The notes: generated by a model from the sequence alone, not told the origin. A stretch of DNA of 64,000 nt from a virus (IMGVR_UViG_3300037358_000003:1-64000), one strand, 5' to 3'. Positions 25,924 to 53,443 are shown, counted from the stretch's first letter. Numbers and translations are program-made.

Positions 25924-26663
25924 GTTGTCCCTTCGGTTCGATTGCCCTCCGCCAAGCGTAGTCGTCCAGCTGCCGGATTTCGCGCACGGTATATCTGGTG
26001 ATGACGTTGAGCTTGTCGGTGAAGAACGCGAGCGCGGCCCAGTGTTTGTGATGGACCTCTTCTGCCCACTTCTTGCCGAACAAACTCACTCGTCGTCCTC
26101 GGCCATGCAGCGGTCGGCGTCAATGCACGCGTTATGAGATTCCTTGAGCGTTCCCAATTCCGCCAAAAACGCGCACCAGTCGGAATGGTCTGGGTACTTG
26201 TAGCCGCTCGTTGTCATTGCGCTCCTGTCATCGTTCGTTTACACAAAGTGGGCATCGTCAGCCGGAAGTTCCTCGTAGTCGCCGTCCCACTCGCCACCCG
26301 AAATCTTGTTGAGATACGCAGCGAACGCGGTGGGCAGTTCCTCATCCTTGATTCCGAACTCTTCGCAATAGTCATCGAAACTCTGCATGCTATGCCTCCT
26401 GTGGACAACTAGGTTGAAATCTGTTGCTTTCGGCCATCACCATTCCTCATACGGTTTCGTCGTGCAGCCGATGCCATTCTGGCAGATACACGGATCGTCA
26501 GTGCACTCCGGCTCCAGTAACGATTTGGCACGAATCGTCAGTTGCATGTTGAATTCGTCGCACAGCAGTTGGAATATGCTCCACAGCGTGTCGTGTGTCC
26601 GCTGATAACTCTCGCGTTCTTGTTCCAACTCGGATGTCAGTAGCTTGATCTGCTTGCGTTTAT

Positions 26664-27161
26664 TCATGTTGGCACTTGTTCATGGTTTCCGTGAACTTCT
26701 GCATACTTGGCTCGCAGATTCTTGCTGACCCGCTGGAAAGTGATACCCTCAGAATCAGCCCACTCTCGCACTGTCTGATCGTCCACCATTGGTGCCTCAG
26801 ATGGCGCAGGAGCCGTTGGAACATCTGCGGGCGGCAACGATACCTCCGAATTAGCAGGGCTAATCTCAGGCGCTTCATGGGCGATTCGGTACTGCTCTTT
26901 CAGCGCCCTGGTTATGTGCCCACCCGGTTTAATCACGATGCCGACACGCATGCACCAGTTTCGGACGGTCGCATTATGCAGATCGTCCTCAGATTTGGGC
27001 TTGCGATCAGGTGCGATCTCCTTGGCACCCTCTACGATCATGACCATCGCTTGCCGATGAGCTTCCTGCAATAACTCGATGCCACGCCGATACGATCTAT
27101 TGCTGTCCTGAATGGACCTGCACTCGGTGAATAAGTCCATGAGGTCGGCGGTCGTGGTCAT
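26664..27161 (-). CDS. Protein with two Lsr2-like DNA-binding domains
   Basis: NATVRNWCMRVGIVIKPGGHITRALKEQY and DQTVREWADSEGITFQRVSKNLRAKY. Confidence 0.7.
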   Translation of the reverse strand: MTTTADLMDLFTECRSIQDSNRSYRRGIELLQEAHRQAMVMIVEGAKEIAPDRKPKSEDDLHNATVRNWCMRVGIVIKPGGHITRALKEQYRIAHEAPEISPANSEVSLPPADVPTAPAPSEAPMVDDQTVREWADSEGITFQRVSKNLRAKYAEVHGNHEQVPT

Positions 27162-27172
27162 TGGGCGGGATC

Positions 27173-27787
27173 TTACAGAGAATCGTCGCCAGAGTCAAGG
27201 TCTTGATCGACTGAATCGTTCTTGCTGACATTGCAACCGAGATGACTGGCTTGCACGTTGGCCCTGATGTGGTCCCCACCTTTTGAGATGGGAATAATAT
27301 GATCGAGCGATACGGAAAGCATGTCGTGTCTTCCGTTTGGAAGATCCCTGCGTCGATCTGGATCAATTGGCTCCTGACAGATACCACAGATCCACTGATC
27401 ACGGTCAAAGATTTCTGTGTGGGTAAAATTTTCTACAATACCACCAGCCTTTTGTGCACTACGTTTGGCGTTGCTCGCCCTGGCGTAAGCTCGTCTCTTC
27501 TCAAGATTGGCAGCTACCCATGCCCTATTGCGCTCTCGCTCTGACGGACGAGCCGCCTTGCGCTCCTCCCTGGCTGCGGCTTCGATCAAACGCTGCGGAT
27601 CATTGGCATATCGGTCTCTGTGATATTGTCTGCTTTTCTCAACATCTCTATAATAATCTGCCTGTTGGCGCGCCCTCACCTTATCTGGATTGGCGGCGTT
27701 CCACTCTTTCTGATATTGTGCATTAATGGCCCGTTCTTCTGCGTTCTTGGGCTTGTTGATTTTTCTGGGTTGGTTTGATTCAGTCAT
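27173..27787 (-). CDS. HNH endonuclease
   Basis: RDQWICGIC..SLDHIIPISKGGDH..NVQASHLGCN. Confidence 0.9.
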   Translation of the reverse strand: MTESNQPRKINKPKNAEERAINAQYQKEWNAANPDKVRARQQADYYRDVEKSRQYHRDRYANDPQRLIEAAAREERKAARPSERERNRAWVAANLEKRRAYARASNAKRSAQKAGGIVENFTHTEIFDRDQWICGICQEPIDPDRRRDLPNGRHDMLSVSLDHIIPISKGGDHIRANVQASHLGCNVSKNDSVDQDLDSGDDSL

Positions 27788-27824
27788 TTTGTAACCCTTC
27801 AGTGTAGCAGGAAAAAAGAAATGG

Positions 27825-27853
27825 TTGACAATGGTAGCGCCATGTGGTTCAAT
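27825..27853 (+). promoter_or_regulatory. Sigma70-type promoter at the strand switch
   Basis: TTGACA-17-TTCAAT-7-ATG(27861). Confidence 0.55.
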
Positions 27854-28166
27854 CTCAACCATGTTCGATTGCCAAGCCCGTGCGGCGGGTGAGAAAGAGT
27901 GCGACTACGCCACGCCGGACGAGATTCGTGACTACTGGCTCGCACGCTGTCGTGAGGTCATTGACGAAGCCACGAAGGCGAAAGCGTTGTTGCTGGCCGA
28001 ATTGAGGCGACATGGAGCTGCCTGACACGTGGGAAGAACTCGACATGCGCTATCTGGCGAGTAAAGATCCGAAGCACCCGGCGAACTGTCTGTGCATGTT
28101 TTGTGTGCAGATCAGTCATCCGTGCGGCAACCCAAGATGCACCGATCCAGACTGTCTAGTGATTGA

Positions 28167-29557: not shown

Positions 29558-29607
29558 CTCTGTGGATAACTTGTTTAGAAGTCCATACTTTCAAACGAAG
29601 GAGTAGA

Positions 29608-29919: not shown

Positions 29920-30129
29920 TGAATCAGCAGACATTAGAACATGACTAGCGAGATACCGGAAATTGCTGGATACACTCTAGACGACGCGGGGTGGCGTAGA
30001 TTTTGTGAAGAGCGCGGGATGGACCCTGATCGGATTGATCTGTTGGACCCGCATTCGATTAACGCAGAAGTTGACCGAGTGTATGACGATAGCGGCGATC
30101 TACGCGAAGGAAAGTAGGACTATTACGAC

Positions 30130-30447
30130 ATGAGCAAAGACGCATGGAAGCAGGAGCACGACCTGCACGAAAAGTTCACCAAGGAATGGGACGTTCGACC
30201 CGACCTTTCAGTGGTTGCGTTGGCGTGTGATCGTACTGTACGCTTTGATCTGCGGTATTCAGATGACGGTCCACTGAAAATGGGACGTTGGCACTCGACG
30301 CAACGAAACGTGGGGACGATGAGAGAACTAGCCAACGCACTTTTGGATGCTTGCGATTTTGTGGAGGCGTCAAATCCGAAGTGGACCGCACGCAAGGGTG
30401 AACCTGACGCCATCGAACGCGTCTTGGCCCAATGGAACGCCGAATGA
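30130..30447 (+). CDS. Hypothetical protein
   Basis: ATG begins at the last base of site 30105. Confidence 0.6.
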   Translation: MSKDAWKQEHDLHEKFTKEWDVRPDLSVVALACDRTVRFDLRYSDDGPLKMGRWHSTQRNVGTMRELANALLDACDFVEASNPKWTARKGEPDAIERVLAQWNAE

Positions 30448-30576
30448 GCAAGCGCAGTCTCGGCCCCGCAGCATCCATCAAAGCTGGCAAAGAGATCCAG
30501 CGCAAGCAACGTATCCGCCATCGTGAGAAGGTGGCGGCGAAGGCCGAACGTGAAGCAACCGAACAAAAGGAGCAAG

Positions 30577-30897
30577 ATGCCGTTTAGTTTGCACAGTGAT
30601 CGAGTCGCTGTAATCGCTGACCCGTTGGAGTCCAAGACCGCCAGCGGTCTGCACATTCCAGAGGGCGCTCAGGACTATCAGGAGCCACGCTACGGCACCG
30701 TTGCGGTAGTTGGCATCGGACATCGCTCGGAGCAGACTGGCGAGCTTGTGCCGATGGATTTCAAGGTCGATGATCGCGTGTTCTTTCACAAGGCTGCTGG
30801 CGAGGTGTGGAAGTTTGATGGGACTGAGTACCTTGTGCTCGGGCCACGTGAGATAATTGGCAAGGATGATGGCAAGAAGTTGAAGGCGGTCAAGTAG
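30577..30897 (+). CDS. groES: Co-chaperonin GroES
   Basis: LHSDRVAV..KTASGLHIP..GTVAVVGIG..VDDRVFF; AAGGAG RBS. Confidence 0.92.
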   Translation: MPFSLHSDRVAVIADPLESKTASGLHIPEGAQDYQEPRYGTVAVVGIGHRSEQTGELVPMDFKVDDRVFFHKAAGEVWKFDGTEYLVLGPREIIGKDDGKKLKAVK

Positions 30898-31130
30898 GTG
30901 AAGGCGTTCTGGACGTTCCTATTTCTGTTTGCTGGCGGATTTTTCGTCTTTGACGTGATCGAGTCCGTCCACTTTTCCAGTCTGCACAATACGGGTCAGA
31001 CAGTATTCTTTGCCCTGTGTGCCATCGTGGAGTGTCTGATCGTCGGATTTGCGGCGGCGATGTTCTCACGAGAGTTTTAGTGGCCGAAAGTATGAGATTT
31101 CGGGGATTATCCCTTCATGGTAGGTACTAG

Positions 31131-32177
31131 GTGAGTTACCCTAGTAGTGCCTGCGACCGTCCAGAATGGGCGCGACGGACCATGAACAGGGGACTTATGC
31201 CGCTCGACTACGGGATGCTGCTCACGGCGGTCCATCTTTCCAACGGGCGTAAGGCCCTTGGAACTGGGTTTTTCGTCACGGTTGAGAGCGAGGTGCCTGA
31301 GGGTGATCCCCACGGATATCTGGTGACCGCTTATCACGTCATTCACAAGGTGCCGAAGGTCTACGCCCAGGTGCCCAACGCCTTTGGCAATGGGGAGATT
31401 TACCCGCCGCGGCTCGTAGACAACTGGAAACGACCGCTAGGCGGGGTTGACATTGCCGTGGCGTCGTTTGAGGGTCCAGAGGATCACAACTACGTGGGTA
31501 TCCCGTTCGATCACATCATGCCCACGGCTGACGGGCTGATTTACCCCTACCTGGGTGCCCATATCTACTACCTCGGCCTCTTTGCACCAGCCCAGCGCAT
31601 GATGGCTAGGTCTGGCACTATCGGCGCTCTTGAGCAAACGGGATTGTCTGAGTCAATGGGCGACGCAAAGAAGGGTCTCAAGTACGGGGACTACCCCGTC
31701 CACCTAGTCGATTGTCGGTCTTATGGTGGCTTTAGTGGGTCGCCCTGCTTCGTAGAGTCGGGTCGTCCCGGTCTGCTGGTCGAGCCTCCACCTACCAACG
31801 CTCCCAAAGGCATTCAGTATCCCCCAATGGGGGTCATGCACTATTTCGCAACCCTCTGCGGAATGTTCGTTGCTCACTATGACGATGTTGGGAACAAGGT
31901 AACCAACCCCGCCGACGTGGTGAGCAAATACGGCGTTGGCATCATGTTGCGGGGTCAAGAGATCAAGGAGGCATTGATGGTTAAGGATTTCCAAACCGAA
32001 AGGCGCATCAAAGACGCCAAGGCTCGGGTCGAAGTCGAGCGGAATACAGTAAAGCCCAAGTTGGCAAGTGCGAATGATGGCGACGAGCTGACGGTCGGTG
32101 CGTTTGATGACGCCCTGCATCGCTCCACTCGCATCACAGCGCCGGACGAATCTGCTCCAGAAGGCTCAGGAACATAG
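31131..32177 (+). CDS. Trypsin-like serine protease (IS passenger)
   Basis: Triad motifs VTAYHV, VDIAV, GGFSGSP. Start uncertain. Confidence 0.8.
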   Translation: MSYPSSACDRPEWARRTMNRGLMPLDYGMLLTAVHLSNGRKALGTGFFVTVESEVPEGDPHGYLVTAYHVIHKVPKVYAQVPNAFGNGEIYPPRLVDNWKRPLGGVDIAVASFEGPEDHNYVGIPFDHIMPTADGLIYPYLGAHIYYLGLFAPAQRMMARSGTIGALEQTGLSESMGDAKKGLKYGDYPVHLVDCRSYGGFSGSPCFVESGRPGLLVEPPPTNAPKGIQYPPMGVMHYFATLCGMFVAHYDDVGNKVTNPADVVSKYGVGIMLRGQEIKEALMVKDFQTERRIKDAKARVEVERNTVKPKLASANDGDELTVGAFDDALHRSTRITAPDESAPEGSGT

Positions 32178-33150
32178 GGTGAGCCTCCCCACGTCGGTTG
32201 TAACGCCAGGTGTATTCGTTGACGTACCCCTGGAGCCACTTGGTGCTGACGTGGTGGTGGGTGCCCACGATGCCAGTTTTCATGTTCGCCCAAAAGCCTT
32301 CGATCTGCTGGGTGTGGATCGCTCCATCCACGTAGATGCCCTTGGAGTGGTTGATCGTGTGGTGAGTGAACCCGTCGCTCTCCAGGCGGTCGTAAATCCG
32401 AGCGTCGTCGGTGTAGATCATGGTCCCATCTTCGACCTGATCGGCAATGTGCTCCATGATCGCGGCTTGGGGGTTCTTGGGGACCACGTAAGCGGCAACT
32501 TTGCCGTAGCGGGTGATCTCAGGCTTGGTCTTACCGTCCCGCAGGATGTGGTTGTTCCGCTCCACCATGCCAAACACGGGCACTTTCTTGTCATGCGACC
32601 ACTTGATCGCTGCCGACTGGCGACCGGCAGGAGACTTGCGAAACTCAGCCTTGTCGGAGTTCCGGGGCTTGCCGCCGATGTATGTCTCGTCCATCTCGAC
32701 CCGGCGCCCAAGCGACGTGTCATCCGGCCCCATGAGTTCGTTTCGGATCTTGGTGAACATCCTCCAGGCGGTTTTGTACGTCACCCCAAGGTCACGCTCC
32801 AGCTGCTTGGCCGAGATGCCGCACTTGGTCTGCGCCATCAGGAAAATGGCGTGAAACCAAAGCTGGAGCGACGTAGACGACTTGTGCATGATCGTCCCTG
32901 CCGTGGGGTGGATGTGATGCCCGCAGGAGTCACAGGAGTACGAGGGACGACTGGCGACCCGGTGGAACTTGCGAATCTCTCCACACTTGGGACAGTGCGC
33001 CCGCTCGGGGGTGTCCAGGGCGTAATGACGGCGCCACAGGTACTCAAGGCAGGCCGCATCGTCGGGAAAATCCCGCATGAAGTCCATAATCGTGTAGGTA
33101 GAGGTGCTCCCACCTGCTCTTTTGGAGTTATTCCGGTTACCTGGTGCCAT
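32134..33150 (-). CDS. tnp: IS1595-family DDE transposase
   Basis: Zn ribbon CPKC..CDSC, HTH GISAKQLERDLGV, VEMDETYIGG, IYTDD, IEGFW. Confidence 0.95.
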   Translation of the reverse strand: MAPGNRNNSKRAGGSTSTYTIMDFMRDFPDDAACLEYLWRRHYALDTPERAHCPKCGEIRKFHRVASRPSYSCDSCGHHIHPTAGTIMHKSSTSLQLWFHAIFLMAQTKCGISAKQLERDLGVTYKTAWRMFTKIRNELMGPDDTSLGRRVEMDETYIGGKPRNSDKAEFRKSPAGRQSAAIKWSHDKKVPVFGMVERNNHILRDGKTKPEITRYGKVAAYVVPKNPQAAIMEHIADQVEDGTMIYTDDARIYDRLESDGFTHHTINHSKGIYVDGAIHTQQIEGFWANMKTGIVGTHHHVSTKWLQGYVNEYTWRYNRRGEAHPMFLSLLEQIRPAL

Positions 33151-34223
33151 GGGATAAGAATACCATGAAATCTACCTACCGTCAAGGGATAATCCCCGAG
33201 ATTTCAGACGTGAGCGAGGGGGAGTCAGAGACGTTTGCCGAATGGCAATTCAGGGTCAAGCCGTTTCTGACTGCTCGCAACAAATGGATTGACGAAAACA
33301 TCCACTACATTTCTGGTCCGATTGAGTACAAATCGACATCTCCGTCAGTGTCGTTTCACATGCGTCCAGCGTTTTGGTTAGATGAGAATTGGGAGGCCCA
33401 TTGGGATGACGAATGAAACTTACGATCCAATGTGCGGGCCAGTCTTGAGATAATGAGTGTGGATAGACATGTCTGACGGGCTTTCAGACGAACGGATCGT
33501 AGTGGGCACATCGTGGATTGACCAAGTGTGTGTTGACTGTGGCGAGCAAGCGTATTGGGTCTGTGTCGCTAATGGTTTCAATGAGGGTATGATTAAGGTG
33601 TCTCAATCACAGTACGACCATGAGAAAAAACAGCACGTCGTGGAGCAGATACCTGGTCGGTCGTTCCTGCACTTCAAGTGTGAGACGCATTACGTTGAGT
33701 GGATCGAACATATGACGCGTGGTGTAGAATAACTAACGGTGGTCAGAAAAGAGACTGACGAGTCGTAAAAACGGAGAATGGGACATTGGGGTCATTCCTG
33801 CGCTTGACGAATGGGCAGGTCACACCTGGTTGATACCTCACCCGCCACCATATTCACTTTTAACAAACCAAGGAGAACCAAGATGACGCTGTCGGCTAAT
33901 CGAGTAGAGGGAACGCAGAACATCAAGGTCCGCACCACCTATGGACCCGTGACCAACGAGGTTGATGAGAACTTCCAGCATGTGCGAGGATTCCATACGC
34001 AGCTTGGTCAGATTCTTGATCAGATGGACGCGGAATACGCCCCGAAGCCTCCCGACTCTGTTTGAATATTGATGCTTTCAACCGTGACCAATCAGGCACT
34101 GTCCCATCAAATAACGAACAGTGCGGACATTACGGATATGCTAGTCGGCTTCTGTACCATTATACTTATTTGGCATAACTGGTATTTGCGCAGGGGAAGA
34201 TAATAAAGTGTTGGATTTCCTTC

Positions 34224-34781: not shown

Positions 34782-35122
34782 ACGATGGTCACGCATCCTG
34801 GTGTTCTCCCGATGAAGAGTGTGATATGCCCATCCACGAGTGGACACGGGGATATGGGCACGAACCAATCAACGTGCCTGGTGGTCAGATGTGCGGCAAG
34901 TGCGAAGAGTCGTGGCCGTGTAATAATGTTGCCCCAATCCTGTTGCCGAGCAGTCCCGTGATAGTCGAACTAAACTCGGCGATTTTAGACATGACCGATC
35001 AAAATAAACGACTACTTGATGTATTGGCGGTCCTTGCCAACAGAACCGACAGTTTGCCTGATTGGGCTGAGCCGATGTTAGCCCCATATAGGCGGTTTGA
35101 ATGAAAATCGTTATTTTACGTC

Positions 35123-35659
35123 ATGGGTAAGCGAAACTGGCTGGACAGGATCAACAACCCCGAAGAGGGTGACCGTGAACTCCTGCACGCCAAACTGCAC
35201 AAGTATTACTGGGACGAGTGGCACGCGGCATTGAAGGCGTATCTCAAAGATCCTCGTGACCCGAGCAACGCCATCTATTTTTTGGAGATGCATCCCGCGA
35301 ACCAGCGCCACGGCTTCGGTTCACCTGATGGGGCGTTCCACGAGAACATGTGGTGGGCGTGCGTCAAGGTCGATCCGGCCAGCAAGCATGTTGAGAACGA
35401 CAAGAGCCGCAATACGTTGACGCAGTTTTGGGTGGAGTGGGGTCCACACATGGAGGAATCCGAGTTCACCGACCGTGATCGAGAACTGGACGCGGTTCCG
35501 AAGGGTGGTTGTTCATCCCATGACTACCGTGTGGATACAGGCGCCGATACGTTTGAGGGCGCCCTGGTGAATCTGGCGCACAACATCTGGAAACTGTACG
35601 GAGAGAACGCCAGATGCGAGCACGACGGCAGCAGGCTTAAAAAGAAGGACCGCTGGTGA
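35123..35659 (+). CDS. Hypothetical protein (bounded by junction sites)
   Basis: Sites at 35098 and 35662. Confidence 0.65.
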   Translation: MGKRNWLDRINNPEEGDRELLHAKLHKYYWDEWHAALKAYLKDPRDPSNAIYFLEMHPANQRHGFGSPDGAFHENMWWACVKVDPASKHVENDKSRNTLTQFWVEWGPHMEESEFTDRDRELDAVPKGGCSSHDYRVDTGADTFEGALVNLAHNIWKLYGENARCEHDGSRLKKKDRW

Positions 35660-35687
35660 CTCGTCTAGATATGCTCATTTTAAGACG

Positions 35688-36203
35688 ATGCGCGTAGCTG
35701 TTACTGGTCACAGACCACAACATCTTAAACTTGAGGATGGCTACTGGATTCAGCATGAGTTCGACCGACTCATTAAGAAGATCAGACCAACGATTGCTAT
35801 CAGCGGCATGGCGTTGGGCGCTGATACTTGGTGGGCAAATGCAGCCGTGACAATGTTGCCACCTTACGGTCCAGTTTCGCTCCATGCCTATGTGCCATTT
35901 CCAGGACAAGATGAGCGGTGGCGGGAGGACGACAGGATCTTTTATCGCCAAATGTTGGCGCAAGCCACCGAGATCATTACCGTCTGCCTAGAATATTCAC
36001 CTGCAGCATTTGAGTTACGAAACCGAGCCATGATCGACAATTGTGACCTTCTGATTGCCGCCTGGAATGGCAAACGATCTGGTGGTACGTTTAACGCTGT
36101 TACCTATGCCAAGAAAAAGGACATGGATATCGTGTATGTTGATCCAGTGCGACGGGTGACCACCATCAGTCGTTCGTCCGAAAGCGCTGACTTTACGACG
36201 TGA
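35688..36203 (+). CDS. SLOG superfamily YpsA/DUF1273-like protein
   Basis: VTGHRP, SGMALGAD, RNRAMID, SGGTFN. Confidence 0.88.
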   Translation: MRVAVTGHRPQHLKLEDGYWIQHEFDRLIKKIRPTIAISGMALGADTWWANAAVTMLPPYGPVSLHAYVPFPGQDERWREDDRIFYRQMLAQATEIITVCLEYSPAAFELRNRAMIDNCDLLIAAWNGKRSGGTFNAVTYAKKKDMDIVYVDPVRRVTTISRSSESADFTT

Positions 36204-36865
36204 TTTACTACGATCTAGACGGTATTACGATCCATCATGCGAACTGTGCTGATGTCATGGTGACTCCAAGCGATGTGGCTCTATTGCTCACTGATCCACC
36301 CTATGGAATCGCCTATAAGTCATCCGCTACTAGGTCTGTTTTGGCCACGTCCCGCGCAGCAGTCGAAATCGTAGGCGACGATAAACCATTTGACCCATCA
36401 TGGTTGCTGCAGTACCCACGAATAGTCCTGTGGGGTGCAAACCACTATGCTGATAAGCTGCCGCCGTCATCGTCGTGGGTCGTGTGGGATAAACTAAACG
36501 GACTCACTAGCGACAGAGACATTGGGTTTAACGACTCATCAGATTGTGAACTGGCGTGGACTAATATTGGTGGGCCAGCGCGTATTTTTTCGCATCGTTG
36601 GATTGGGATGTTACGCGATAGCGAGCGTGACAGGACTGGTTGGCATCCAACGCAAAAACCCGTGGCACTTATGTCTTGGATTTTGAGGGCGTGGACTAAA
36701 CCTGGGGATCTGGTGTACGATCCGTATATGGGGAGTGGCCCCGTAGCAGAGGCTTGCCATTTGGCTGGTCGTAGGTACGTTGGCGTGGAAATGAATGAGG
36801 GCTATTGCGAAAAGGCTGCCAGCAGACTAGCCCAAGGTGTGTTGGACATCTTCGCCAATGTTTGA
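36200..36865 (+). CDS. N4-C/N6-A DNA methyltransferase (beta class)
   Basis: TDPPY, HPTQKP, DPYMGSG. Confidence 0.92.
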   Translation: MIYYDLDGITIHHANCADVMVTPSDVALLLTDPPYGIAYKSSATRSVLATSRAAVEIVGDDKPFDPSWLLQYPRIVLWGANHYADKLPPSSSWVVWDKLNGLTSDRDIGFNDSSDCELAWTNIGGPARIFSHRWIGMLRDSERDRTGWHPTQKPVALMSWILRAWTKPGDLVYDPYMGSGPVAEACHLAGRRYVGVEMNEGYCEKAASRLAQGVLDIFANV

Positions 36866-36886
36866 AAGCTCCTGCTTTACTTCAAA

Positions 36887-37974: not shown

Positions 37975-38415
37975 ATGTCTGAATACGTGGGCTTTACGAC
38001 ACAGGGTGAAGAAACGTTCCTGCGAGACTGGGCATCCCGAAACAAGTCCATCTATGAAAACGAGGGCAGCTGTGGATTCGGACGTGATTGCGTGGGAATC
38101 ACCAGCGGTCAGGTGTGGATTGATCTTGGTCCAACGGTCACCAAGCAGTTTGAGGGTGCGTTGGCGTCGGACACCTACGAAGACCAAGAGATTGACGGGG
38201 ACGCTTGGCCACCAGAAGGCGTGGACGACGCGTATCACAAGCACGACTGCTTGGCTGTGCTGGGTCATGGTCCGGCCGCCGTTCATCAACTTTATTTGTG
38301 GGTTAAGAATCTGGACTCCCACGGATTTGTGGTGAAGAAGGCAACGCGCTCCACGAAGGACATTTACGACGCCCTGCTGCACGGTGGCGACTACGTTTAC
38401 TTGGAGAAGGCGTGA
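37975..38415 (+). CDS. Hypothetical protein (bounded by junction sites)
   Basis: GSCGFGRDCVGI, AYHKHDCLAVL; sites at 37976 and 38416. Confidence 0.65.
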   Translation: MSEYVGFTTQGEETFLRDWASRNKSIYENEGSCGFGRDCVGITSGQVWIDLGPTVTKQFEGALASDTYEDQEIDGDAWPPEGVDDAYHKHDCLAVLGHGPAAVHQLYLWVKNLDSHGFVVKKATRSTKDIYDALLHGGDYVYLEKA

Positions 38416-38614
38416 TGGCCGAAAGTAGCCCTATTCAGACGCCAGCGAAGGACATGCTTGACCTTTGGGATCGCCTGACTACCGCAAGATCAAAACTCAA
38501 CATGATGGCAGATGATGCTATCTTGGATGGCAGCGAGGATGTTGATCGACTACAGGGTAAGGCCGAGGGTATTGGACTTGCGTTGTCCTATCTGGATGAG
38601 GTGATTCGGGAACG

Positions 38615-38998: not shown

Positions 38999-39438
38999 CG
39001 CGAAGGAAAGTACAGCTATTCCTCCAGACGTTTCTGTGAAGTGTCGCACCTGCGGCGAACCGTACGAGGAGCGGATGAGTCTGATCCACAGAAAGATGCT
39101 ATGGTTTCCCACCTGCAACCACATTGCTGGCAAGGATTCGGCGGAGATAACGCCCAATGTCTGAGCATCCATTCACCAATGACGAATTACGTGGACTGAG
39201 AGCATGGTATAAACCCGACCAGACGGGAGCCGCAGCGGTCCGGCAGTCTGACAATGCGGCGCAGGACTTCCCTATCCTGTTGGATATGGTGGAGTGTTTC
39301 CGGTCCCTAGTTGAACAAGCCCTATTCCTGCGGATGTACGGTGAACGCCCACCAGGCGCACCTAAAGATCCAGCAGGGGAGACATGGCGAGATTGGGACA
39401 CGCGTGCGGAAGCGGCCCTACGTGGGGACGTTTGACTT

Positions 39439-40110: not shown

Positions 40111-41939
40111 GAATATATGACCAAGACACACAACACTACAGAGACCACTGACAGCTACAAGGCCATGTGCGACAGGGAGCGTGCCCGCAAGGACGCTCTC
40201 GACCTCCCTTGCGCCATCCGGGTTCGGATGCCCAAGTTCACCGAGGGCGAAGCCCCCAAGAACGTTGGCCGCTACGCTCGCCCCGGAATCTAGGGGCGGC
40301 TAGCGCCATGAAGCGATGCTCTCAGTGTCTTGCGCCGTCTGATGGTTGGCCAGATGGCGAGGGTGGCGAATTGTGTCAAGATCATTGGACGCAGCACCGC
40401 TGTGGCGAACCTCGTACTGAACATCCTGAATGGTATTGTCTGACATGCGGGTGCTGGAACGATGTGCATCCAGGCGCCTGCGCTGTGAGTGACTGCGTCT
40501 GCACGAATCTCCACCTTCAGGGATACCCAAGCAGAAAAGAATACGAGAAGGAGAGACGCAAGGCTAAGGGGCACTACATCGTTCAGGCGCCTCCACCCGC
40601 TAGCCACTATTGCGAGAAGCCGTCTACGTTCTATGCGCGTCCAGGAGAAATATGGCAGTGCGACATCTGTCATCAAAAATGGAAGTTCCGCAGGTCATTG
40701 CTTGATCGGCTCGCGATGGTCCAGGGTGATTGGAGTCCGACACGATGAGCGAAAGTACAGATATTCAGACACGTAGTTGCGCTGAGTGCATCCATGCGGT
40801 CTTTCAGGAAACCGGCTACTCCAACTACACGGTCGAGGGTAGGGATTTCTGGTGTAGCAAAAATCTCCATCCTGACGATGGCTTCGACGCTTGGTACGAC
40901 AGGGATGATCGCTTAAAGTTTGCGGAGGAGTGTCCAGAATACTGGCAAGGTGAACCTATCAGTATCGATGTTGACCAGGAAGAACTAGTGTCACTTAGTC
41001 CAGACCGACGTGCTATTTACGACGAGACAATGAAGCGGGCTTACGGTGACTAGCCCGTCTGAAAGCAACGCTATTCCTTCAAAGGTTTATCTTGCCGTGC
41101 GATCTTGGGATAATTGGGAGAGCGACATTGGTGAAAGATTCCTAGGAGCGTTTACAACGCTTGAAGGGGCTAAGCGATTTTGTGAGGAAAAATACAGAGG
41201 CGATGAACCCGTTTGGCGTGATTACACCTACGGGTCATCTTGGACACTAGATACACGGCGACAGGATTCGATAGATATTGAGCTGACGGAGGTCGGCCCA
41301 TGAGTCAGTGGATCCACGTAGACGGTCATCTCAACGGAGTAGCCAAAGACCTGTCTGATGAAAAGACGCCGGAGGGATCAGAGGGCGGTCACCCTCTTAG
41401 CAAGTACATGGCGCACAATTGGATGTGGCATGCCGACCTGCGGGATCGTGGCGAAGAGGACGCTTCGTCAATTCGCGATTGGTTCGTCTCCCTGTGTCAG
41501 CGAACCCAACCGCATGATGCGGAACTCACCATTGACGTGGAGTTCGGTGGTCGCTATGATTTTACTTGGGATGCGGGACATCAAGACCTGATTCTGGAAA
41601 TCCCACCGCTCTACAGGGACGCACTTGATGATGAGCACATGGAGCGTGAAACTAATGTCTGAAAAGACAAGTATTCAGCCACCCGACGAACTTTGGACCT
41701 TTGACAAGGCTGAAATCCATCACGGCGGTCTTGGACTTTGGGAAATCTTCTTTTTTAAAGACGGACGCTCTGGCTGGTCCCACGTTGAGTGCGTCAACAC
41801 AAAACGAAAGGCACAGCGGAGGGCGCGAAGGGTTTTGCAAGATGGATATCTGTTTCGCCCACCCAAGGAAACAACGGCAGTGGAAACCATTACAAAAACG
41901 AGGAATTTGGGCCATGTCTGAAAAGGATAGCTTTCTACC

Positions 41940-42578
41940 ATGAATCCTTACTACGAGGATTCGCTTGTGACGCTTTATTGCGGTGATAGTCGTGAGATCC
42001 TGCCGTTACTCAAGGCTGACGCTATTGTGACCGATCCTCCGTATGGCGTGAATCTGGACTACGACACTTTTGATGACTCGCCAGAGAACGTAGCAGCACT
42101 CGCCGCAGATATTGTGCCAATGATGCGTGACGCTGCACCAGTTTCGGCGCTTTTTACGGGTGTCAAGAATCTTCACAAGTGGCCAACGCCTGACTGGACG
42201 ATGTGCTGGTTTATGTCAAATGGCATCGGCGTGGGTCCGTATGGATTCTGTACCTGGCAGCCCATTCTGATTTATGGAAAAGATCCGTATGGAGGCAAAG
42301 GATCGCGTCCAGATGGCGTGTCTCTTCCGACTGCAGCTAGAGATATCGTCGGAGGTCATCCGTGCCCAAAGCCGGTCACCGTAATGACGTGGCTGATTCA
42401 GCGGATGATTTCAGACCCAGACGGTGTAGTCCTGGACCCGTTCACTGGCAGCGGATCAACGCTTGTAGCGGCCAAGCAACTCGGATATCATGCTATTGGG
42501 ATTGAACTTTCGGAGGCGTACTGTGATGTTGCGGTCAGACGGCTGGCGCAAGGGTCGTTATTTGAGGCGTTCGCGTGA
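41940..42578 (+). CDS. N4-C/N6-A DNA methyltransferase
   Basis: TDPPY, HPCPKP, DPFTGSG; exactly bounded by sites 41915 and 42579. Confidence 0.92.
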   Translation: MNPYYEDSLVTLYCGDSREILPLLKADAIVTDPPYGVNLDYDTFDDSPENVAALAADIVPMMRDAAPVSALFTGVKNLHKWPTPDWTMCWFMSNGIGVGPYGFCTWQPILIYGKDPYGGKGSRPDGVSLPTAARDIVGGHPCPKPVTVMTWLIQRMISDPDGVVLDPFTGSGSTLVAAKQLGYHAIGIELSEAYCDVAVRRLAQGSLFEAFA

Positions 42579-43538
42579 TGTCTGAAAAGATAAACTTTCA
42601 ACCATGGCTACCTGGTGGTGACGGTGACTTCTGCCGCGGCTTAGACGCAGAGAAGGACGCCGACCCTGAAAAGGTGTTGGATGCGTTTTTGTGGGATCTG
42701 GAAGGATTGACCGTTGCCAAGCTGACGGAGACCGAACGTGACGCGCTCATGGACTGCTTGACGTTCATGCCCATGTTTTCGGTTATCAAGATTGACTGGG
42801 ATGATCTGGGAGAGGATTGTGAGTGGCACACGGACGGGCACGGCAAGCGATGCCGTCCTACTTGGTGGTTGGAGTATCGTGCGGGAGACATCATCGAAGA
42901 CGTGGTGGATCGTCTTCAGTCTGAGTGCTCACATGCGAATATCAACGAATCAGGTCTGTGGTGTAATGATTGTGGATATTCACAAAACTTCAAGAAGGTG
43001 ATGGCGTGACTGAGGAGACTTGTTGGGCCATCCTGTCGGCCTATTCAATCGTGCCGCCGCATTGCATTCTTCCCAAGGGGCACGATGGCAACCATCAGGC
43101 CCACCCGCTTGATGATCTGACATGGGCTAATGATGACCTCACTGCTCGCCAGCGGCAAACGGAAGTGCGGGAGACTGGCAAATGAAACTGCGCTGTAGAT
43201 TGAGACATCATGACTGGCTTAGCCCCGAGCCATGGCACGGCAGCCCGTTTTACCTCCGTACGCGCTGTCGATATTATGCCGACTGCGGTGGAGTTCAGTG
43301 GTTCCCGAGAAAGCCGGGGGTTGGCGATGTCTGAAAATGATAAGATTCCGACGAGGTGGTGTGATCGCAGCAGTTGCCAATACATGCTGCGGGCGGCTGG
43401 CGGAACGTCAAGGGTCTTGATGATGAGGTACGCGGACGGGGAAGGATTAGACAGTGATGGCCGAGAATCCGTCTGGCGTGACATCGCCACGTTTCCAAGC
43501 TATAACGACGCCGACTCAGTCCTGCGGAAGTTGCGGTC

Positions 43539-43919
43539 GTGAGTGAATCCGTGTCAAGAAGCGAGAACTTTCAACCAAGGCGTGTACTGGTCTATGGCGG
43601 GCGTGACTTTATGGATCGAGAGTTCATGGGGTCTGTGCTGCGGAAGCACCTTGAACCGGGCGACGTGATTGTTCACGGCGGCGCACCAGGGGCCGATTCC
43701 CTTGCCGGGGACATATCGGGGCGTGTGCTTGGTCACGACGTTGAGGTTCATCCTGCCCAGTGGAGCAAGTACGGCAAGGCCGCTGGCCCTATCCGCAATC
43801 AGGAAATGCTTGACTCGGGTATTCAGTTCGCCATTGGGTTCGCTGGTGGTCGTGGGACTGATGACATGACCAACCGGCTCATCAAGGCGAACGTGCTCCG
43901 TATCGGGCCAGCGTTCTGA
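43539..43919 (+). CDS. SLOG DUF2493 (YspA-like) protein
   Basis: VYGGRDF, HGGAPGAD, AGPIRNQEML; sites at 43552 and 43920. Confidence 0.85.
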   Translation: MSESVSRSENFQPRRVLVYGGRDFMDREFMGSVLRKHLEPGDVIVHGGAPGADSLAGDISGRVLGHDVEVHPAQWSKYGKAAGPIRNQEMLDSGIQFAIGFAGGRGTDDMTNRLIKANVLRIGPAF

Positions 43920-43967
43920 TGTCTGAAAACCTCGACATCTAAACAAAAGGCATACAATAGTTAGCAC

Positions 43968-43996
43968 TTGACATTCTGACCATTGAGGCGCATAAT
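43968..43996 (+). promoter_or_regulatory. Leaderless-type promoter
   Basis: TTGACA-17-CATAAT-6-ATG(44003). Confidence 0.75.
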
Positions 43997-45260: not shown

Positions 45261-46162
45261 CGACCGAAAAGCCCAATATTCAAACGAGCAAGTGGCAAGC
45301 GTTCAAGGATGCGATTGGTGGCGAAACTGGCGGATGGGTCGCTGGCGATAACTGGGAGTGTGCTGATTGCGATGCTGGGGGTATCAGTGAAACGGCCAGT
45401 ATCGCACTGTATGTTCACAGGCAAAAGGCTCGCCATTGGAGCGGGGGTGTGGGTGCTGGTGCGCAATAACTCGGCTAAGTGCGGGACGGGCGGCTCGGGT
45501 GAGTCGCCGCGGAGCCTGACAGCCCACACACTTAGGTTTGACCCTGCATTGGGGCCACTGCCGATCGGTTCTAGGCAAGATCCTAAGTGCAAGGCGTCAT
45601 GACCGTGGAAACCCCAGAGTGGATGAAGTACATAACGCCAGACGGCAGAGTGTTTTTGCCTACTGGTAGCGGATTCGCTATGGCTCGTATTGAGACAGAT
45701 CAGTACGGACGTACAGTGTGGTACGATCGTGGCGAAGACGGCGGATTCAGGGTGGTGGAGTAATTGGTCCACATTCAGACAGTCAGGCATGGACCCCTGC
45801 TGCGGCGTCCTGTCGGTTCTGCCATTGGCTGGCTTGTTGCACAATGCGACTGCGGATGGGAAAGTGGACACACCTGTTCTCAACTACAAGCGATTGAGTG
45901 GTATGGCGATCACCGAGCGGAGATGGGATTGACTGATGCTCCGACCAATATCTGCGAATGTCCCGAAGGGATATGTGTCGCATGGGAACCATTGAGCAGG
46001 TGTCGCGAATGGCGATCTTGAGACGTTGGCACCAATGTTCGGCTAAGTGTACGATGTCTGGTGTTCATTACCAGTGCGAGCGGTTTCGCGGGCATTCGGG
46101 GACGTTGCACTATTCGCTGATGGGTCGCTTGGATATGGTTCAGTGGCCAGACGGGTGGGACA

Positions 46163-48073: not shown

Positions 48074-48484
48074 TATGTCTGAAAGTTCAGGTATTACGAC
48101 AACGCTGCATGACGACTTCAAACCAGACGCATCCCATCCGATAACTGTAGGCGAACTGATCGTGAAACTGAGTGCGTTGCCGTTTGACGCTAGCGTCCTT
48201 GTCTGTCCGTGGGAAGGTCACACCGCGTGTAGCTCCGTGACTGGCGTTGAGTATGACGATCATCACGTATTGCTGGAATCGGTCAAACCGTGAATCCACC
48301 TACGCTTTGGGCCAGTGAGAAGGATTGGAACCGAGTCCTGCGGAGAATGAATCGCATGGTGCGCCGACAGGAACGATGGTTGCGTCGCCGTACTCGTGGT
48401 CCTGTCATCACAATGACGTGGGAGCAGTGGGATAGCCTTCTGACCTGCACAAATACAAAAACCTAGAAATCTTTGGAAAATGTA

Positions 48485-48513
48485 TTGACATCTGCATGCG
48501 AGAAGCGCATAAT
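48485..48513 (+). promoter_or_regulatory. Promoter of the candidate ncRNA
   Basis: TTGACA-17-CATAAT with no ATG following. Confidence 0.7.
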
Positions 48514-49307: not shown

Positions 49308-49335
49308 TTGACATATTCGCATAAAAGCGCATAAT
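49308..49335 (+). promoter_or_regulatory. Leaderless-type promoter
   Basis: TTGACA-16-CATAAT-6-ATG(49342). Confidence 0.7.
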
Positions 49336-50829
49336 AGAGATATGACCACCACCCAAACCACCGAAGCCCTTCAAATCCCCACCTACAGCGGCGTCATCAC
49401 CATTGAGTCGGGTGCTGCCCACCTGACCTCCAACGGTCGCCACGTGGGGTTCATTGACCTCACCACCCCCATCACCCACGCCGACCACGGCGACTGGGTT
49501 GCCGTTGCCCACAACTCCACCGGCGCCTTCCGCGTCTCAATGACCGAGTTGGCAGCGGTCATTCTTTCTCAGGCCCTTCACCTGGAGATGGGGGCGTGAG
49601 GTCCGAGGCTGATCAAATAGCGTTTCTAAACGATTGTTTAAACAAGGTGGACGCTACGGTGGAGAGAATCACGATGGAGCGAGACAAATGGCGACGACTG
49701 CTGGTGGATGCCGTAGGTGAAGACGTGGCCGAGATGAAGTACCGTTCGGATGCTTGAGATCCCAACCAGTCGGTGGGATGAACATGATGGGTCCGTAGAG
49801 TACGGATGGCGAAGTGACCACGGTATTGCATACATCGGTAGCCGAGAAAACGTGGTTGGGTGGGCTGCTGGACTCACTGACCATATCGTGGCCCTTGTGC
49901 CGCTGGCCGAGTACGATCAGATGATGAACGAGAGATGGCAGGACGACTGTGAGTGTGGCCATGGACGCTGGCAACACCGCCCCAAGTGCGGAGCGTGGCC
50001 CGTTGATCCAGCGTGTGGATGCGCGGAGTTTCGGGAGGTCATCATTACTGATGACTGAGATCCCAGACCGCGCACTCAACTACATGCCAGATATTCCGAT
50101 TCCGGTCGATTTTCGACACAAATCCGAAGTGTCTGCATGTAGTCACGATGAAGTGATCCAAGTGAACGTAGGCATTTGGAAGTGTCAAGATTGTTCTGTT
50201 CCGTTTGTCCCGGGCCAGACAGAAGAACTACCGTGGTACCAATGCCCGATCCACCCGGATCTTCTATGTTCACTTCATGATAACTACTGTATTCATTTCA
50301 ACGGAGAGGGCGGACCTGGGTGCGATTGCGCGTTGCCTCGCCGTCTGGCCGAGCATGTCGGGAATCTACGTGCAGAGCCGTTCGGCACCCCCGACCAACC
50401 CGAAGGCGATCCTGATTGGGGTCCACATCGTGTCTGAAATCCCAGACGGGGCACGGGAGAAAATGGCACGATGGCTATGCGACCGCAGTAGCCTCTCATT
50501 CGATGATTGCAGTGTTAGTGAGCAGGAGAAGTGGTTGTGGGAGGCAGAGTTCACGATCTGCAAGGTACTAAGGTTGTGCGATGAATTCTGAGGTCCAGTT
50601 CGTCGGGTTTCATCTGGACTTCTTTGTTGGCGAGCGCGTCACCGTGCGTATAGAATCAAATGGAGATGTCAGATATGTAGGGGGTGCCGTGACATCTAAG
50701 TCCGTTGACGGGAACTACTGGACGACGAGTGTAGATTGCGACGATGGATCGTCTGTGGATGTTCGTGAGTACGTCGTCATGGCACCCCGTGTCTGAAATG
50801 TCTACTATTAGTGCAAGTTGTCCACAGGG

Positions 50830-50858
50830 TTGACAGTTGGGGATTAAAGGCGCATAAT
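50830..50858 (+). promoter_or_regulatory. Leaderless-type promoter
   Basis: TTGACA-17-CATAAT-6-ATG(50865). Confidence 0.75.
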
Positions 50859-51246
50859 CCATATATGACCATTACAGACATCCCCATCTACCTGCGTAAC
50901 CCAATTCACCGCCCAGTCCATGAGATCGTTCCGATCCCAGGCCATTCGCGTGACGAGTACGGCTCCGGTCGGGCCAACTCCATCTGCGGTTGGTGCCACA
51001 GAGCGTCCGGCGTCTACAAGGACATTCAGACCTGCATCGACAGACTGGTAGAGCACCACCTGAACGACTGCGACGGAGAGCAGGTGCCCAGCGTCATGAT
51101 CGTGGGTCCGCCCGACTCCCGCAGGTCCGAATTCGCTCCCAACTACGAGATCGTGGACGGTCACGCCTGCCACATCAGTTGGTGCAGGGCATTCAACGAC
51201 TTTTACCCGCACGTCGGGGACGCCTACAACAGCTACGCCTAGCATT

Positions 51247-51293
51247 GCCACCACGGTTGGCGTATCGGGGATCGTTCCCCCGGCGTGGCACCA
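51247..51293 (+). other. tRNA-like minihelix (acceptor 3' strand + T-arm + ACCA)
   Basis: CGGGG-ATCGTTC-CCCCG-GCGTGGC-A-CCA, with upstream GCCAC pairing. Confidence 0.4.
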
Positions 51294-51619
51294 TGAGTGA
51301 AGACAACCCGCCAGTCAGCGACACGCTGGTCAACTTCTGCCAATGCGAACCAGACTCCCACTGGACGACTGGTTCAGATGGCGGTGATATGCGGACGGAT
51401 TGTCAATGTCGATGCCTTACCTGTCAGGAATTTTGACGAGATGACGAACATTGATCCTGACTACGTGATCCAATTGCAACGCGCAGCTTGGGTTGCTCGT
51501 GACTGTTTACGTTCGTACCTCAAATATGGGGATTGGGATGAGCACGCAGATTACGGAACGCAGGCCGCATTTGATGCCCTGTCTGACGCACTGATACCCG
51601 ATGACGAAAATGTAGAGAG

Positions 51620-51648
51620 TTGACAACCGTGTCGTGTGAGTATTAAAT
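51620..51648 (+). promoter_or_regulatory. Leaderless-type promoter
   Basis: TTGACA-17-TTAAAT-6-ATG(51655). Confidence 0.6.
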
Positions 51649-51917
51649 AGAGATATGACCAAAACGACCGCCACCCCAACATCGCACGACGATGAGTCTC
51701 CGTGTCAGCACTGCCAGTTTCCAGTTGAAGCTAACATGGGTCAGGCTGGTGGTCCGTTTCCTTACGTTCACTCCATGACGGGACAGGCGTTTTGCAAGGA
51801 CGAGCAGAAGTCCCTGAAAGATGCATTTCCTCCGAAGATTGAAGGCAGATCCCACGGAATGTCCGCCAGCGAGGTGCGGAAGGCCATTGCGACCAGCGAG
51901 CGCGCATACAGGAAAAT

Positions 51918-52286
51918 GTGATGAGTTGGGACGCGTGGCTGACAAAGGATTGCGGCATTCGTCCATGTGACGAACAATCTCACGTCTTAGGCGATTGGAA
52001 CTACACCCACAACACCAGCAAAATGATTTACGGGGTGTTGATGCAGACGAACGACTATGACACGACTCCCGGCCCGTGGTGGAATCTCCTGAATGGCATG
52101 AATGGTGCCGAAGGTGGACGCTATCTCGACACCATTATTCGTGGACTAGAGGCCGATCCGCAGAAGTTTGAGGCGTGGAATCCCGAGAACAAGTGGGGAA
52201 GTTACGATGGTTTGTTGGGCGTACTCAGAGAGATGCACAAGGCGTGCATCATCGAACAACCAACGATCTGGGGTGCCTGTGGATAA
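51918..52286 (+). CDS. Conserved phage hypothetical protein
   Basis: WNYTHN..NPENKWGSYDG. Confidence 0.65.
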   Translation: MMSWDAWLTKDCGIRPCDEQSHVLGDWNYTHNTSKMIYGVLMQTNDYDTTPGPWWNLLNGMNGAEGGRYLDTIIRGLEADPQKFEAWNPENKWGSYDGLLGVLREMHKACIIEQPTIWGACG

Positions 52287-53443
52287 CCCGCGGGAATATC
52301 AACCAATTACGACGCACCATCCAGTAGTGTGTGAATCTGGACTGACGTGGAGGGAACTGGCCTCACAGCCCAAAGACTTGCTAGTGGAAATGACTGACGA
52401 GCAAATCGAACAGATCAGGGAGCGGATGGCCGAGAACGCACCGTGTCGGTACGACCGTGACCACGGAGGCCATTGGGTTCGCGACCAGCAGGGAACGAAC
52501 CGTTGGTGTGACGGGATACGTCCACAGGAGGGCCAGTGAGAATCGAATGGTGAATCCCGTGGCCTTACTGCGTGATATGCGACGACGGGGACTCTCCCTG
52601 GTGAGCAAGAACGGACATTTCCGAGGTAAGACCTACATCACATTGGGTGGAGAGAGATGGCAAGGTGTCCACTCTCCAGATCGGTGTAGTGGCGACGTTT
52701 GTGTTATCCACAATCCGAGCCAGCACCACATGCGTCAGTGGCCCATGCACCTGCGGGATACTGGGTTAATTGAGCGGATTTGCGAACATGGAGTGGGCCA
52801 TCCGGACCCCGACAGTTGGCCGTTCTTCGATAGAATGTACGGTCATGAACCCGGCACATGGTCGATTCATGGATGTTGCGGTTGCTGTCGTGCCGACTGA
52901 TGATCCAACCACAGAGGCGATCAACAGAGTTGTGAAGCTGAACGTACTCTGGCACGAGGGTCGTATTCAGGCGAGCGACTATATCGGCTTGATTGATCTC
53001 ATCCATACGTGGTGGCGAAAGAGTCTGCGTGACTGACGAACCTGAGTCGTGTCCGGACTGCGGGCATCCGATGCAGGATGACGATGGCTGTTCATGGCCA
53101 TACTGTCCCGATTGCATCGAGGGTGAGTACCCGTGGTGAGTGGTGAGGATATCATCAACGAGTGGTTCTTGTACGCCATGACTGGCGACAAGGATGCGAC
53201 CGTGACGATCTTATTGAAACAACTGCGAGGATCTATGCCAACTGACGATTCCAATCTTGCGCGTGTACTGCGAGCGTTACTGTCTGCTGGTGACGTGACG
53301 ATTGAAGCTGTCGAAGCTGGCGGATTGGGTAATCGGCGCACAGGCTACAGACTGACCGTGAACTCATCGGTCGTCGTGGACGCTCAACATATTCAGGCCA
53401 TCAAGCACTATGGAATAGTGGAGGGTATGTAACGGATCACCCT

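Follow-up and report, generated by a model that had tools for sequence, protein, structure and literature searches.

Putative heterospecific recombination sites at the gene junctions of a virus genome and a candidate Xer-like recombinase

The stretch of DNA studied here (IMGVR_UViG_3300037358_000003:1-64000, called the window throughout) covers the first 64 kb of a virus record of 101,772 bp, which is complete and has direct terminal repeats. Genes up to about 26 kb lie on the minus strand and include those for the portal protein, the large terminase, a DnaB-like helicase, an ERF-type annealing protein and a PD-(D/E)XK nuclease; a rightward block of about 50 small genes occupies 28 to 56 kb, and the rest of the genome is read leftward again. 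Our subject is a two-fold symmetric DNA element of 26 bp that recurs at the gene junctions of the rightward block, together with a gene for a simple (arm-less) tyrosine recombinase of 276 amino acids at 10308..11138. An inspection of the window from its sequence alone (hereafter the sequence-only reading) had noticed both and had proposed the elements as a candidate integron-like cassette system.

The element was counted as the pattern YG-N3-GAAW-N8-WTTM-N3-CR on both strands, with dinucleotide shuffles as the null. The window holds 30 strand-hits at 20 distinct exact places (30105 to 57205), whereas the shuffles average 0.17 and never exceed 2, and the remaining 38 kb of the genome contain zero further exact sites. 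When the centre is left out of a weight matrix, the scan picks up 26411 and 43920 as well, and at lower scores also 29572, 29916, 31081, 35662 and 43552. The sequence-only reading had counted 19 exact and 6 near matches where about 0.25 would arise by chance; the 20 exact and about seven degenerate copies found here agree with it on the number and on the excess. It was also right that structural and core replication genes are free of exact sites, the only matches outside the small-gene block being weak ones at 10000 and 80935. One of its sites had been pieced together across an insertion sequence (IS); a right arm alone is found there, and the left half could not be rebuilt confidently.

Relatives of this virus are known only as metagenomic contigs. 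Megablast with 10 kb of the site region matched no cultured phage, tblastn with the portal protein gave remote relatives only and no close cultured phage, and an IMG/VR scan with the single portal protein gave no match; a portal-protein alignment then yielded 29 IMG/VR loci. Whole records of relatives show that the complete genomes G003 (86 kb) and G005 (89 kb) carry arrays of 27-30 sites of the same motif and of about 29 sites of a sharper variant (TGTCTGAAAG-N6-CTTTC(A/T)(A/G)CA, over start codons too), respectively, and the 19.6-kb fragment G013 carries 10 sites. The complete genome G004 (82 kb) has zero sites by direct pattern count, although its portal protein is 53% identical to that of the window against 45% for G005. 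The core of the G005 motif, GAAAG-N6-CTTTC, occurs in 27 copies vs 0.07 expected. A crude search for exact spaced palindromes detects the array in G005 only and misses the window's own; at k=4, its top result in G003 is GAAA-N8 with 7 copies. Consensus-site scans of IMG/VR gave mostly chance single matches and were useful for L131/G013 alone. Slot-specific scans found a 21-bp identity to the site at G005 7749 / G013 5470 (GCAGAAAGTGTTGGCTTTCAA) at position 1167 of the reverse complement of L241 (IMGVR_UViG_3300025083_001645), a 5-kb, AT-rich, viral and otherwise unrelated contig; this match may be chance, or a slot common to a different phage.

The information profile of the element shows a fixed G2, GAA at positions 6-8, TT at 19-20 and C25, with strong preferences for T1, T3, C4, T5, A9 and R10 on the left and for T17, W18, M21 and R26 on the right. 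Because positions 10 and 17 are semi-conserved in the window (and fixed as G and C in G005), the anatomy is better read as 10-6-10 (arm-centre-arm) than as 9-8-9. The inverted arms seen by the sequence-only reading do have the geometry of a tyrosine-recombinase core site, but the 8-bp core that it placed between them shrinks to a 6-bp centre flanked by 10-bp arms. The arm consensus is TGTCTGAAAG on the left and CTTTCAGACA or CTTTACGACA on the right, where two classes, TTCAGAC and TTACGAC, can be told apart. All exact sites are confined to the rightward small-gene block and, with the exception of 45756, point in one orientation. The conserved arm had been said to follow transcription with a reversal at 26411; this is true of every exact site but 45756, and the degenerate copy at 26411 scores alike on both strands.

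The sites are tightly bound to the ends and beginnings of genes. A stop codon of an open reading frame (ORF) of at least 50 amino acids is held or touched by 19 of the 20 exact sites, compared to 4.0 at random positions, and our own conservative gene call places a stop codon within 13 of them, compared to 1.0. By eye, 18 adjoin a stop, 43328 touches a start only, and 57205 lies inside an ORF of 357 amino acids. ORF stops fall on sites to a similar extent in the relatives (25/30 vs 6.1 random for G003; 24/27 vs 5.6 for G005). At about half of the sites the left TG ends an ATG behind a GGAG-like Shine-Dalgarno sequence, so that the site encodes the first nine codons of a gene, and other sites have an ATG or GTG at their right end (30130, 35123, 36200, 41940); the junction position and both kinds of start are as originally described. 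At 41914-41943, the site wholly encodes a nine-codon mini-ORF (MSEKDSFLP) with its own Shine-Dalgarno sequence and an ATGA end, an arrangement found again at 47167 of G003 turned to the window's orientation (G003-rc); the overlap suggests translational coupling to the methyltransferase gene that follows. Within the 357-aa ORF (57003-58076), the site is in frame about 70 codons from the start, as it is in the G003 orthologue (L041:689-1762, minus). The two proteins are 49% identical from residue 112 on and unrelated before, similarity starting only past the site, and the ORF may record the swap of an N-terminal module.

The centres carry the most specific information. Eleven window sites have a 6-bp centre in common with G003 sites, and all eleven are collinear and in the same orientation (chance 0.2-0.5) once the genomes are compared as window and G003-rc; reverse-complement centre matches between the two number zero. 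Four centres are common to G005 and G013, again collinear, and four to G003 and G005, with one block rearranged. CTCCTG is common to the window, G003 and G005, and GATAAA to the window, G003 and G013. No centre is repeated between two sites of one genome. The statement that all spacers differ therefore stands within a genome, but the centres are not arbitrary, since different phages hold them in common and in order.

What surrounds these matching centres is unrelated. Nine window-G003 pairs were compared position by position: variable arm positions are 33-67% identical and the 30-bp flanks 21-28%, which is the random level; these pairs were picked by similarity of the 8-bp spacer, and the 100% identity of their centres is partly by construction. 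Across four genomes, 23 centre-matched pairs have both 150-bp flanks unrelated in 21 cases, one flank related in two and both in none. Genes between paired sites show no protein similarity between window and G003 (tblastx, blastp), and the interval lengths differ; for example, the interval from 41915 to 42579 holds a methyltransferase of 212 amino acids, whereas the equivalent G003 interval is 275 bp. Between G013 and G005, nucleotide similarity of 80-90% ends or begins inside a site. The sites thus coincide, as the sequence-only reading had anticipated, with the points where the gene content of relatives differs. Its further proposal, that single genes are inserted and excised as in an integron, possibly without spacer homology, does not fit the comparison, because the centres are private and different phages keep them in one order and orientation. 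As recombination joints, the sites look addressed and in register rather than integron-like.

Near-duplicate centres, in which one of eight bases differs, occur at adjacent sites only and bracket short segments. The pair 39001/40746 brackets 1.7 kb including a methyltransferase gene (39439-40095) where G003 has a single slot; the second pair is G005 88119/88439. Such a pattern would be the footprint expected of a site duplicated by insertion.

The recombinase has a PF00589 domain and a weak SAM-like N-terminal domain, and no arm-binding domain. Among NCBIfam models it is matched best by XerA (3.5e-21) and XerC (8e-18), although every match falls far short of its cut-off, and its best solved relative is gp33 of mycobacteriophage Brujita (5vfz, 5e-23), an arm-less integrase, followed by XerC-like proteins, XerA, IntI4, XerD and XerH. 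Ten homologues, with identities down to 39%, all retain the residues R145, E148, K170, H224, R227, H250 and Y259. The gene had been named as a candidate from the window alone, and among the relatives it co-occurs with the arrays: PF00589 genes number one each in the window genome, G003 and G005, none in G004, and none on the fragment G013, while G014, a contig of the same sample, carries one. Two further metagenome records, L203 (130 kb) and L204 (102 kb), also carry the recombinase. Its distant homologues (38-40% identity, on contigs of 65-70% GC) are without comparable arrays and look like ordinary integrases.

The backbone place of the gene varies: it lies between two glycosyltransferase genes in the window genome and G003, and in G005 it separates two structural genes that adjoin each other in the window. 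Because its place differs in this way, the recombinase appears to behave as an accessory gene that travels with the arrays. Other window genes present in G003 and G005 and absent from G004 encode a DUF4406 protein, N6/N4 methyltransferases and a 124-aa ORF of the structural region; partial matches to Lsr2-like DNA-binding tails show the same profile. None of these is a likely reader of the dyad site, and no helix-turn-helix (HTH) regulator with the phylogenetic profile of the motif was found among the window genes compared across G003, G005 and G004.

Several other features of the small-gene block accompany the sites (Table 1). The sequence TTGACA-N17-CATAAT, with GCG before the -10 in most cases, is present in five exact copies vs 0.24 expected and looks like the early promoter family of the block; related promoter sequences in G003 appear as tblastx matches around G003-rc 62689-62760. 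Only two of the five promoters have a site nearby. A DnaA-box-like 9-mer, TGTGGAYAA (complement TTRTCCACA), stands 2 nt from the outer end of a site in four of its six window copies, in both G003 copies and at one site of G005, and at 50818 it lies between site and promoter; it may be the site of an accessory factor or a regulator. Orphan DNA methyltransferase genes and SLOG-family genes are gathered between 34224 and 46000, where they probably constitute an anti-restriction or anti-defence arsenal carried as cassettes. The right end of an IS1595-family element abuts the lone right arm at ~33201, as if the element had inserted into a site.

Table 1. Coordinates of the sites and accompanying features. 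Positions are those of the window unless a relative is named; the partner column gives the G003-rc site with the same centre.
Feature	Position	Strand	Centre	G003-rc partner	Remarks
Tyrosine recombinase, arm-less, 276 aa	10308..11138	-			PF00589 2.7e-13
Site	26411..26436	.			degenerate; divergence point of leftward and rightward blocks; matrix score 13 on both strands
Site	29572..29597	+			degenerate; score 10.4
Site	30105..30130	+	TAGGAC	46760	upstream stop in centre, ATG at right end; same centre G003 39539
Site	31081..31106	+			degenerate; score 10.3
Site, right arm alone	33185..33210	+			ATTTCAGACG at ~33201-33210, then GTG start; beside IS1595-family element; left half not recovered confidently
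Site	34059..34084	+	TTGATG	55108	left arm holds stop of 33811-34065; same centre G003 31191
Site	35098..35123	+	TCGTTA	55851	ATG at right end
Site	35662..35687	+			degenerate; score 9.0; ATG at right end
Site	36175..36200	+			precedes N6/N4 methyltransferase 36200-36865
Site	36859..36884	+	CTCCTG	57302	same centre G003 28997, G005 9246
Site	37976..38001	+	CGTGGG	57687	ATG on left TG
Site	38416..38441	+	TAGCCC	58088	ATG on left TG
Site	39001..39026	+	TACAGC	58856	near-duplicate of 40746
Site	40746..40771	+	TACAGA		near-duplicate of 39001
Site	41056..41081	+	CAACGC	59981	
Site	41656..41681	+	GACAAG	60523	ATG on left TG
Site	41915..41940	+	GGATAG	62003	ATGA on start of methyltransferase 41940-42578
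Site	42579..42604	+	GATAAA	62278	same centre G003 24021, G013 8731
Site	43328..43353	+			ATG on left TG
Site	43552..43577	.			degenerate; score 10.5 on minus strand
Site	43920..43945	+			degenerate; score 14.9; 22 bp upstream of -35 of promoter at 43968
Site	45261..45286	+			exact pattern match
Site	45756..45781	-			reverse orientation; score 22 minus vs 13.5 plus
Site	48076..48101	+			ATG on left TG
Site	50790..50815	+			then TTGTCCACA, then promoter at 50830
Site	52289..52314	+			TGTGGATAA just before
Site	57205..57230	+			in frame inside ORF 57003-58076
Promoter	37545-37573				
Promoter	40082-40110				
Promoter	43968-43996				
Promoter	48485-48513				
Promoter	50830-50858				
9-mer at site	26400				TGTGGACAA
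9-mer at site	29561				TGTGGATAA
9-mer at site	50818				TTGTCCACA
9-mer at site	52278				TGTGGATAA
9-mer at site	G003-rc 40637				
9-mer at site	G003-rc 41913				
9-mer at site	G005 80850				
Orphan DNA methyltransferase	34224-34781				MT-A70
Orphan DNA methyltransferase	36200-36865				N6/N4
Orphan DNA methyltransferase	36887-37528				C5 fragment
Orphan DNA methyltransferase	39439-40095				N6/N4
Orphan DNA methyltransferase	41940-42578				N6/N4
SLOG-family protein	35688-36203				
SLOG-family protein	43539-43919				
SLOG-family protein	44700-45260				
IS1595-family element	32089-33184				transposase 32134-33150, minus strand

The lifestyle of the virus bears on how the sites are read. The portal alignment found no prophage relative among 185,579 species genomes, and a comparison of 40 small-gene-block proteins with Pfam found no repressor-like family, such an absence of match being weak evidence. 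The genome thus gives no lysogeny signal, and the phage is virulent-looking. Some observations on single genes may be added. Weak Lsr2-type DNA-binding tails on two proteins (12947-13762 and 26664-27161) and an HNH nuclease at 27173-27862 hint at an actinobacterial host. The large terminase ORF (13894-16647) is 917 amino acids long, and an unmatched middle, which may be an intein or an inserted domain, splits its N- and C-terminal terminase matches. The ORF at 30523-30897 encodes a Cpn10 (GroES-like) co-chaperonin (PF00166 1e-16) that is kept in G003 and G004.

We propose, with a probability that we put at about 0.5, that the 26-bp elements are core-type, heterospecific dif/lox-like sites of the phage's Xer-like recombinase and serve the exchange of genes in register. 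The exchange would be in register, and between genomes, because the centres are unique within each genome yet ordered and oriented alike amid unrelated flanking genes. Core-type sites have inverted arms of about 9-13 bp around a central region of 6-8 bp, as the elements do, and the recombinase combines the full R-(E/D)-K-H-R-(H/W)-Y set of a cognate enzyme with the lack of an arm-binding domain. Inner arms ending in GAAAA beside the central region are known for difSL and difH (PMC5357621). Together, the geometry, the private in-register centres, the unrelated flanks and the intact enzyme would fit classical tyrosine-recombinase logic.

More specifically, a recombinase monomer would occupy each 10-bp arm, and two like-centred sites would pair, in practice a junction and its counterpart on the genome of a co-infecting relative or on a sister copy. 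Tyr259 would then cut at what we presume to be the edges of the centre, and strand exchange would presumably require matching centres, as it does at dif, loxP and FRT. Unlike centres within a genome would keep its own sites from recombining with each other and so prevent deletions. Like-centred junctions of two related, co-infecting genomes would cross over in register, and two such crossovers would swap the genes between them, here the orphan DNA methyltransferases, SLOG proteins and ORFans. A block this dense in genes must accommodate the sites, which would account for their overlap with the upstream stop and the downstream start, often over the first nine codons. The left arm often holds an ATG, in one frame at all such sites, and an incoming gene would therefore find itself in frame behind the resident start.

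A number of observations weigh against this proposal. The co-occurrence of recombinase and sites draws on three complete positive genomes, one fragment pair of one sample and one complete negative, and the recombinase gene belongs to the late gene block, a long way from the sites. The same gene can also stand at different centres: the ORF at 33811-34065 precedes TTGATG, while its G003 homologue precedes TCTGAG, and a cassette found behind TCTGAA in G005 stands behind CTTCGG in G013. In G013, a decayed site comes after that cassette and precedes the gene that directly follows the CTTCGG site in G005; this looks like a one-site circle inserted into a slot, with one copy of the site later decayed. 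Such an event would imply occasional exchange between unlike centres, or another route, and cassettes with different centres mean that not all moves respected centre identity. The constancy of the centres over such divergence also has no evident selective reason.

The main rival explanation, which the sequence-only reading had raised as its alternative and which we consider unlikely, is an operator or roadblock network akin to mycobacteriophage stoperators or to MrpR on the SPbeta repeated element. A phage DNA-binding protein would sit on the sites and so shut off or pace the expression of the small-gene block, at the level of transcription or of translation. That protein may be the recombinase, serving mostly as a regulator, and the joints would then be mosaic only as the sole conserved sequence between fast-turning genes. 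The layout of the sites in one co-directional block, along its direction and over start codons, would suit such a network, and three further points speak for it at the expense of recombination: a promoter -35 follows the site at 43920 after 22 bp and that at 50790 after 14 bp, the DnaA-box-like 9-mer adjoining several sites hints at a regulatory side, and MrpR sets a precedent for a recombinase-fold protein as a pure repressor (PMC10516654). However, reading of the arms by a regulator would not explain ordered 6-bp centres between arms whose variable positions are only 33-67% identical. About 18 of the 20 sites lie away from promoters, the R-E-K-H-R-H-Y set is kept in 10/10 homologues whereas MrpR lost four of seven, and neither signs of lysogeny nor an HTH regulator sharing the profile of the motif was found in the comparisons above. 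A regulatory role of some copies, or a dual role, may exist alongside recombination. A plain promoter function was rejected, the block having its separate sigma-70-type family TTGACA-N17-CATAAT.

Less probable still is homology- or break-driven shuffling, in which the 16-20 identical bases of inner arms and centre anneal with the help of the ERF-type protein and the PD-(D/E)XK nuclease; the sites would serve another purpose or be cut by a phage nuclease, and there would be no conservative site-specific reaction. The phage does encode an ERF-family protein (24497-25222) and a PD-(D/E)XK nuclease (25219-25923) as well as many homing-type nucleases, repeated promoter/stem-loop motifs are points of gene shuffling in T4-type phages (PMC2839356, PMC4122927), and moves of cassettes across slots would be easier without a strict centre rule. 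Yet 16 to 20 bp is short for annealing-based recombination, and the ERF and nuclease genes do not track the motif: G004 has an ERF-like match without sites and G003 has sites without a match. Dyad arms need a binder, for which the recombinase is the only gene with the right profile and fold, and the T4-type motifs are near-identical and without private centres. An element acting in RNA, where a hairpin in the mRNA hides the start codon for translational coupling or as a translational-repressor operator, seems very improbable to us. Sites do lie over starts or between stop and start, and perfect copies could form an 8-bp stem, but conservation of the loop slot by slot would be without reason. 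We rejected the hairpin on pairing as well: variable arm positions 3-5/22-24 pair at 0.30-0.48 vs 0.36-0.48 for shuffled partners in three genomes, and A21 stands opposite G6 in half of the window sites. A conserved N-terminal peptide was also rejected, since centres are kept where they are untranslated (window 30105, G003 39539) and frames differ between sites.

In the mosaic genomes of phages, the joints are often placed precisely between genes, which is usually attributed either to illegitimate recombination at random with subsequent selection or to relaxed homologous recombination. Crossover sites that are encoded and addressed would add a third route, a programmed one. It is conceivable, though we hold it to be somewhat less probable than the assignment of the sites as such, that the arrays amount to natural recombinase-mediated cassette exchange in a lytic lineage, with one Xer-like enzyme, about 25 heterospecific sites and private 6-bp centres as addresses. 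If so, diverged co-infecting phages would trade accessory genes slot for slot while gene order and reading frame are kept. This might be a general source of ordered mosaicism among phages, so far undescribed, and would explain how phages that have diverged far retain gene order and still exchange anti-defence genes, among them the five DNA methyltransferases seen here. No array of heterospecific recombinase sites encoded by a phage is described in the literature searched. The 276-aa recombinase and the 26-bp sites form an enzyme/site pair that can be tested, and naturally orthogonal sites for one small recombinase may be of use in multiplex cassette exchange.

Among known systems, integrons also join a tyrosine recombinase to an array of short genes separated by imperfect palindromes. 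Their attC sites are 57-141 bp long, have the R''-L''/L'-R' layout with GTTRRRY and act as a folded single strand, and the IntI integrase has an extra domain. The sites here are 26 bp long, lack GTTRRRY and show no folded-strand covariation, and the sequence-only reading had already seen that they are not attC-like. Integron-integrase models align with the C-terminal 55 residues only and score 51 and 31 bits, where their cut-offs are 265 and 435; there is no attI/Pc platform, and some cassettes have their own promoters. Heterospecific lox and FRT sites combine common arms with different spacers, and since only like sites recombine, segments can be swapped in register without deletion. The common arms and different centres of the phage sites resemble them, with like-only recombination being proposed here, but the laboratory design uses two sites and the natural array about 25. 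Cluster A mycobacteriophage stoperators, asymmetric 13-mers bound by the HTH immunity repressor of temperate phages, are likewise short sites that lie by the dozen at junctions, oriented with transcription; they are without private centres, and unlike them the sites here are dyad-symmetric.

Closer in some respects are two phage systems. MrpR, the master repressor of SPbeta, has a tyrosine-recombinase fold, binds the element SPBRE at about 10 promoter regions and maintains lysogeny; having lost four of seven catalytic residues, it does not recombine (PMC10516654). It resembles our candidate pair as a phage recombinase-fold protein matched with a short DNA element repeated over the genome, but here the catalytic set is intact, most sites lie off promoters and no lysogeny signal is seen. 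The promoter-early stem-loops (PeSLs) of T4-type phages mark the end points of insertions, deletions and replacements (PMC2839356, PMC4122927). Like the sites described here, they are repeated gene-boundary motifs in hyperplastic regions of a lytic phage and coincide with end points of gene replacement between relatives. However, PeSLs are near-identical composites of promoter and terminator used by homologous recombination, whereas the window has a separate promoter family, no stem covariation and private centres.

The nearest described system is that of the dif modules (pdif) of Acinetobacter plasmids, on whose sites the host XerC/XerD act (PMC6449649, PMC13141974, PMC7399989). In both systems, the accessory part of a single replicon carries many short Xer-type sites, each with a 6-bp centre between inverted arms, and the discrete gene modules delimited by the sites vary from one related replicon to the next. 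Some IS elements are known to target pdif and dif sites (PMC10132070), and in the window an IS1595-family element lies beside the lone arm. The carrier here is instead a virulent-looking phage, and the candidate enzyme is a single phage-encoded recombinase rather than host XerC/XerD. Where pdif sites alternate between C/D and D/C, all exact sites here but one share an orientation, and they differ further from pdif in lying over start and stop codons and in having slot-private centres that are kept in order across relatives.

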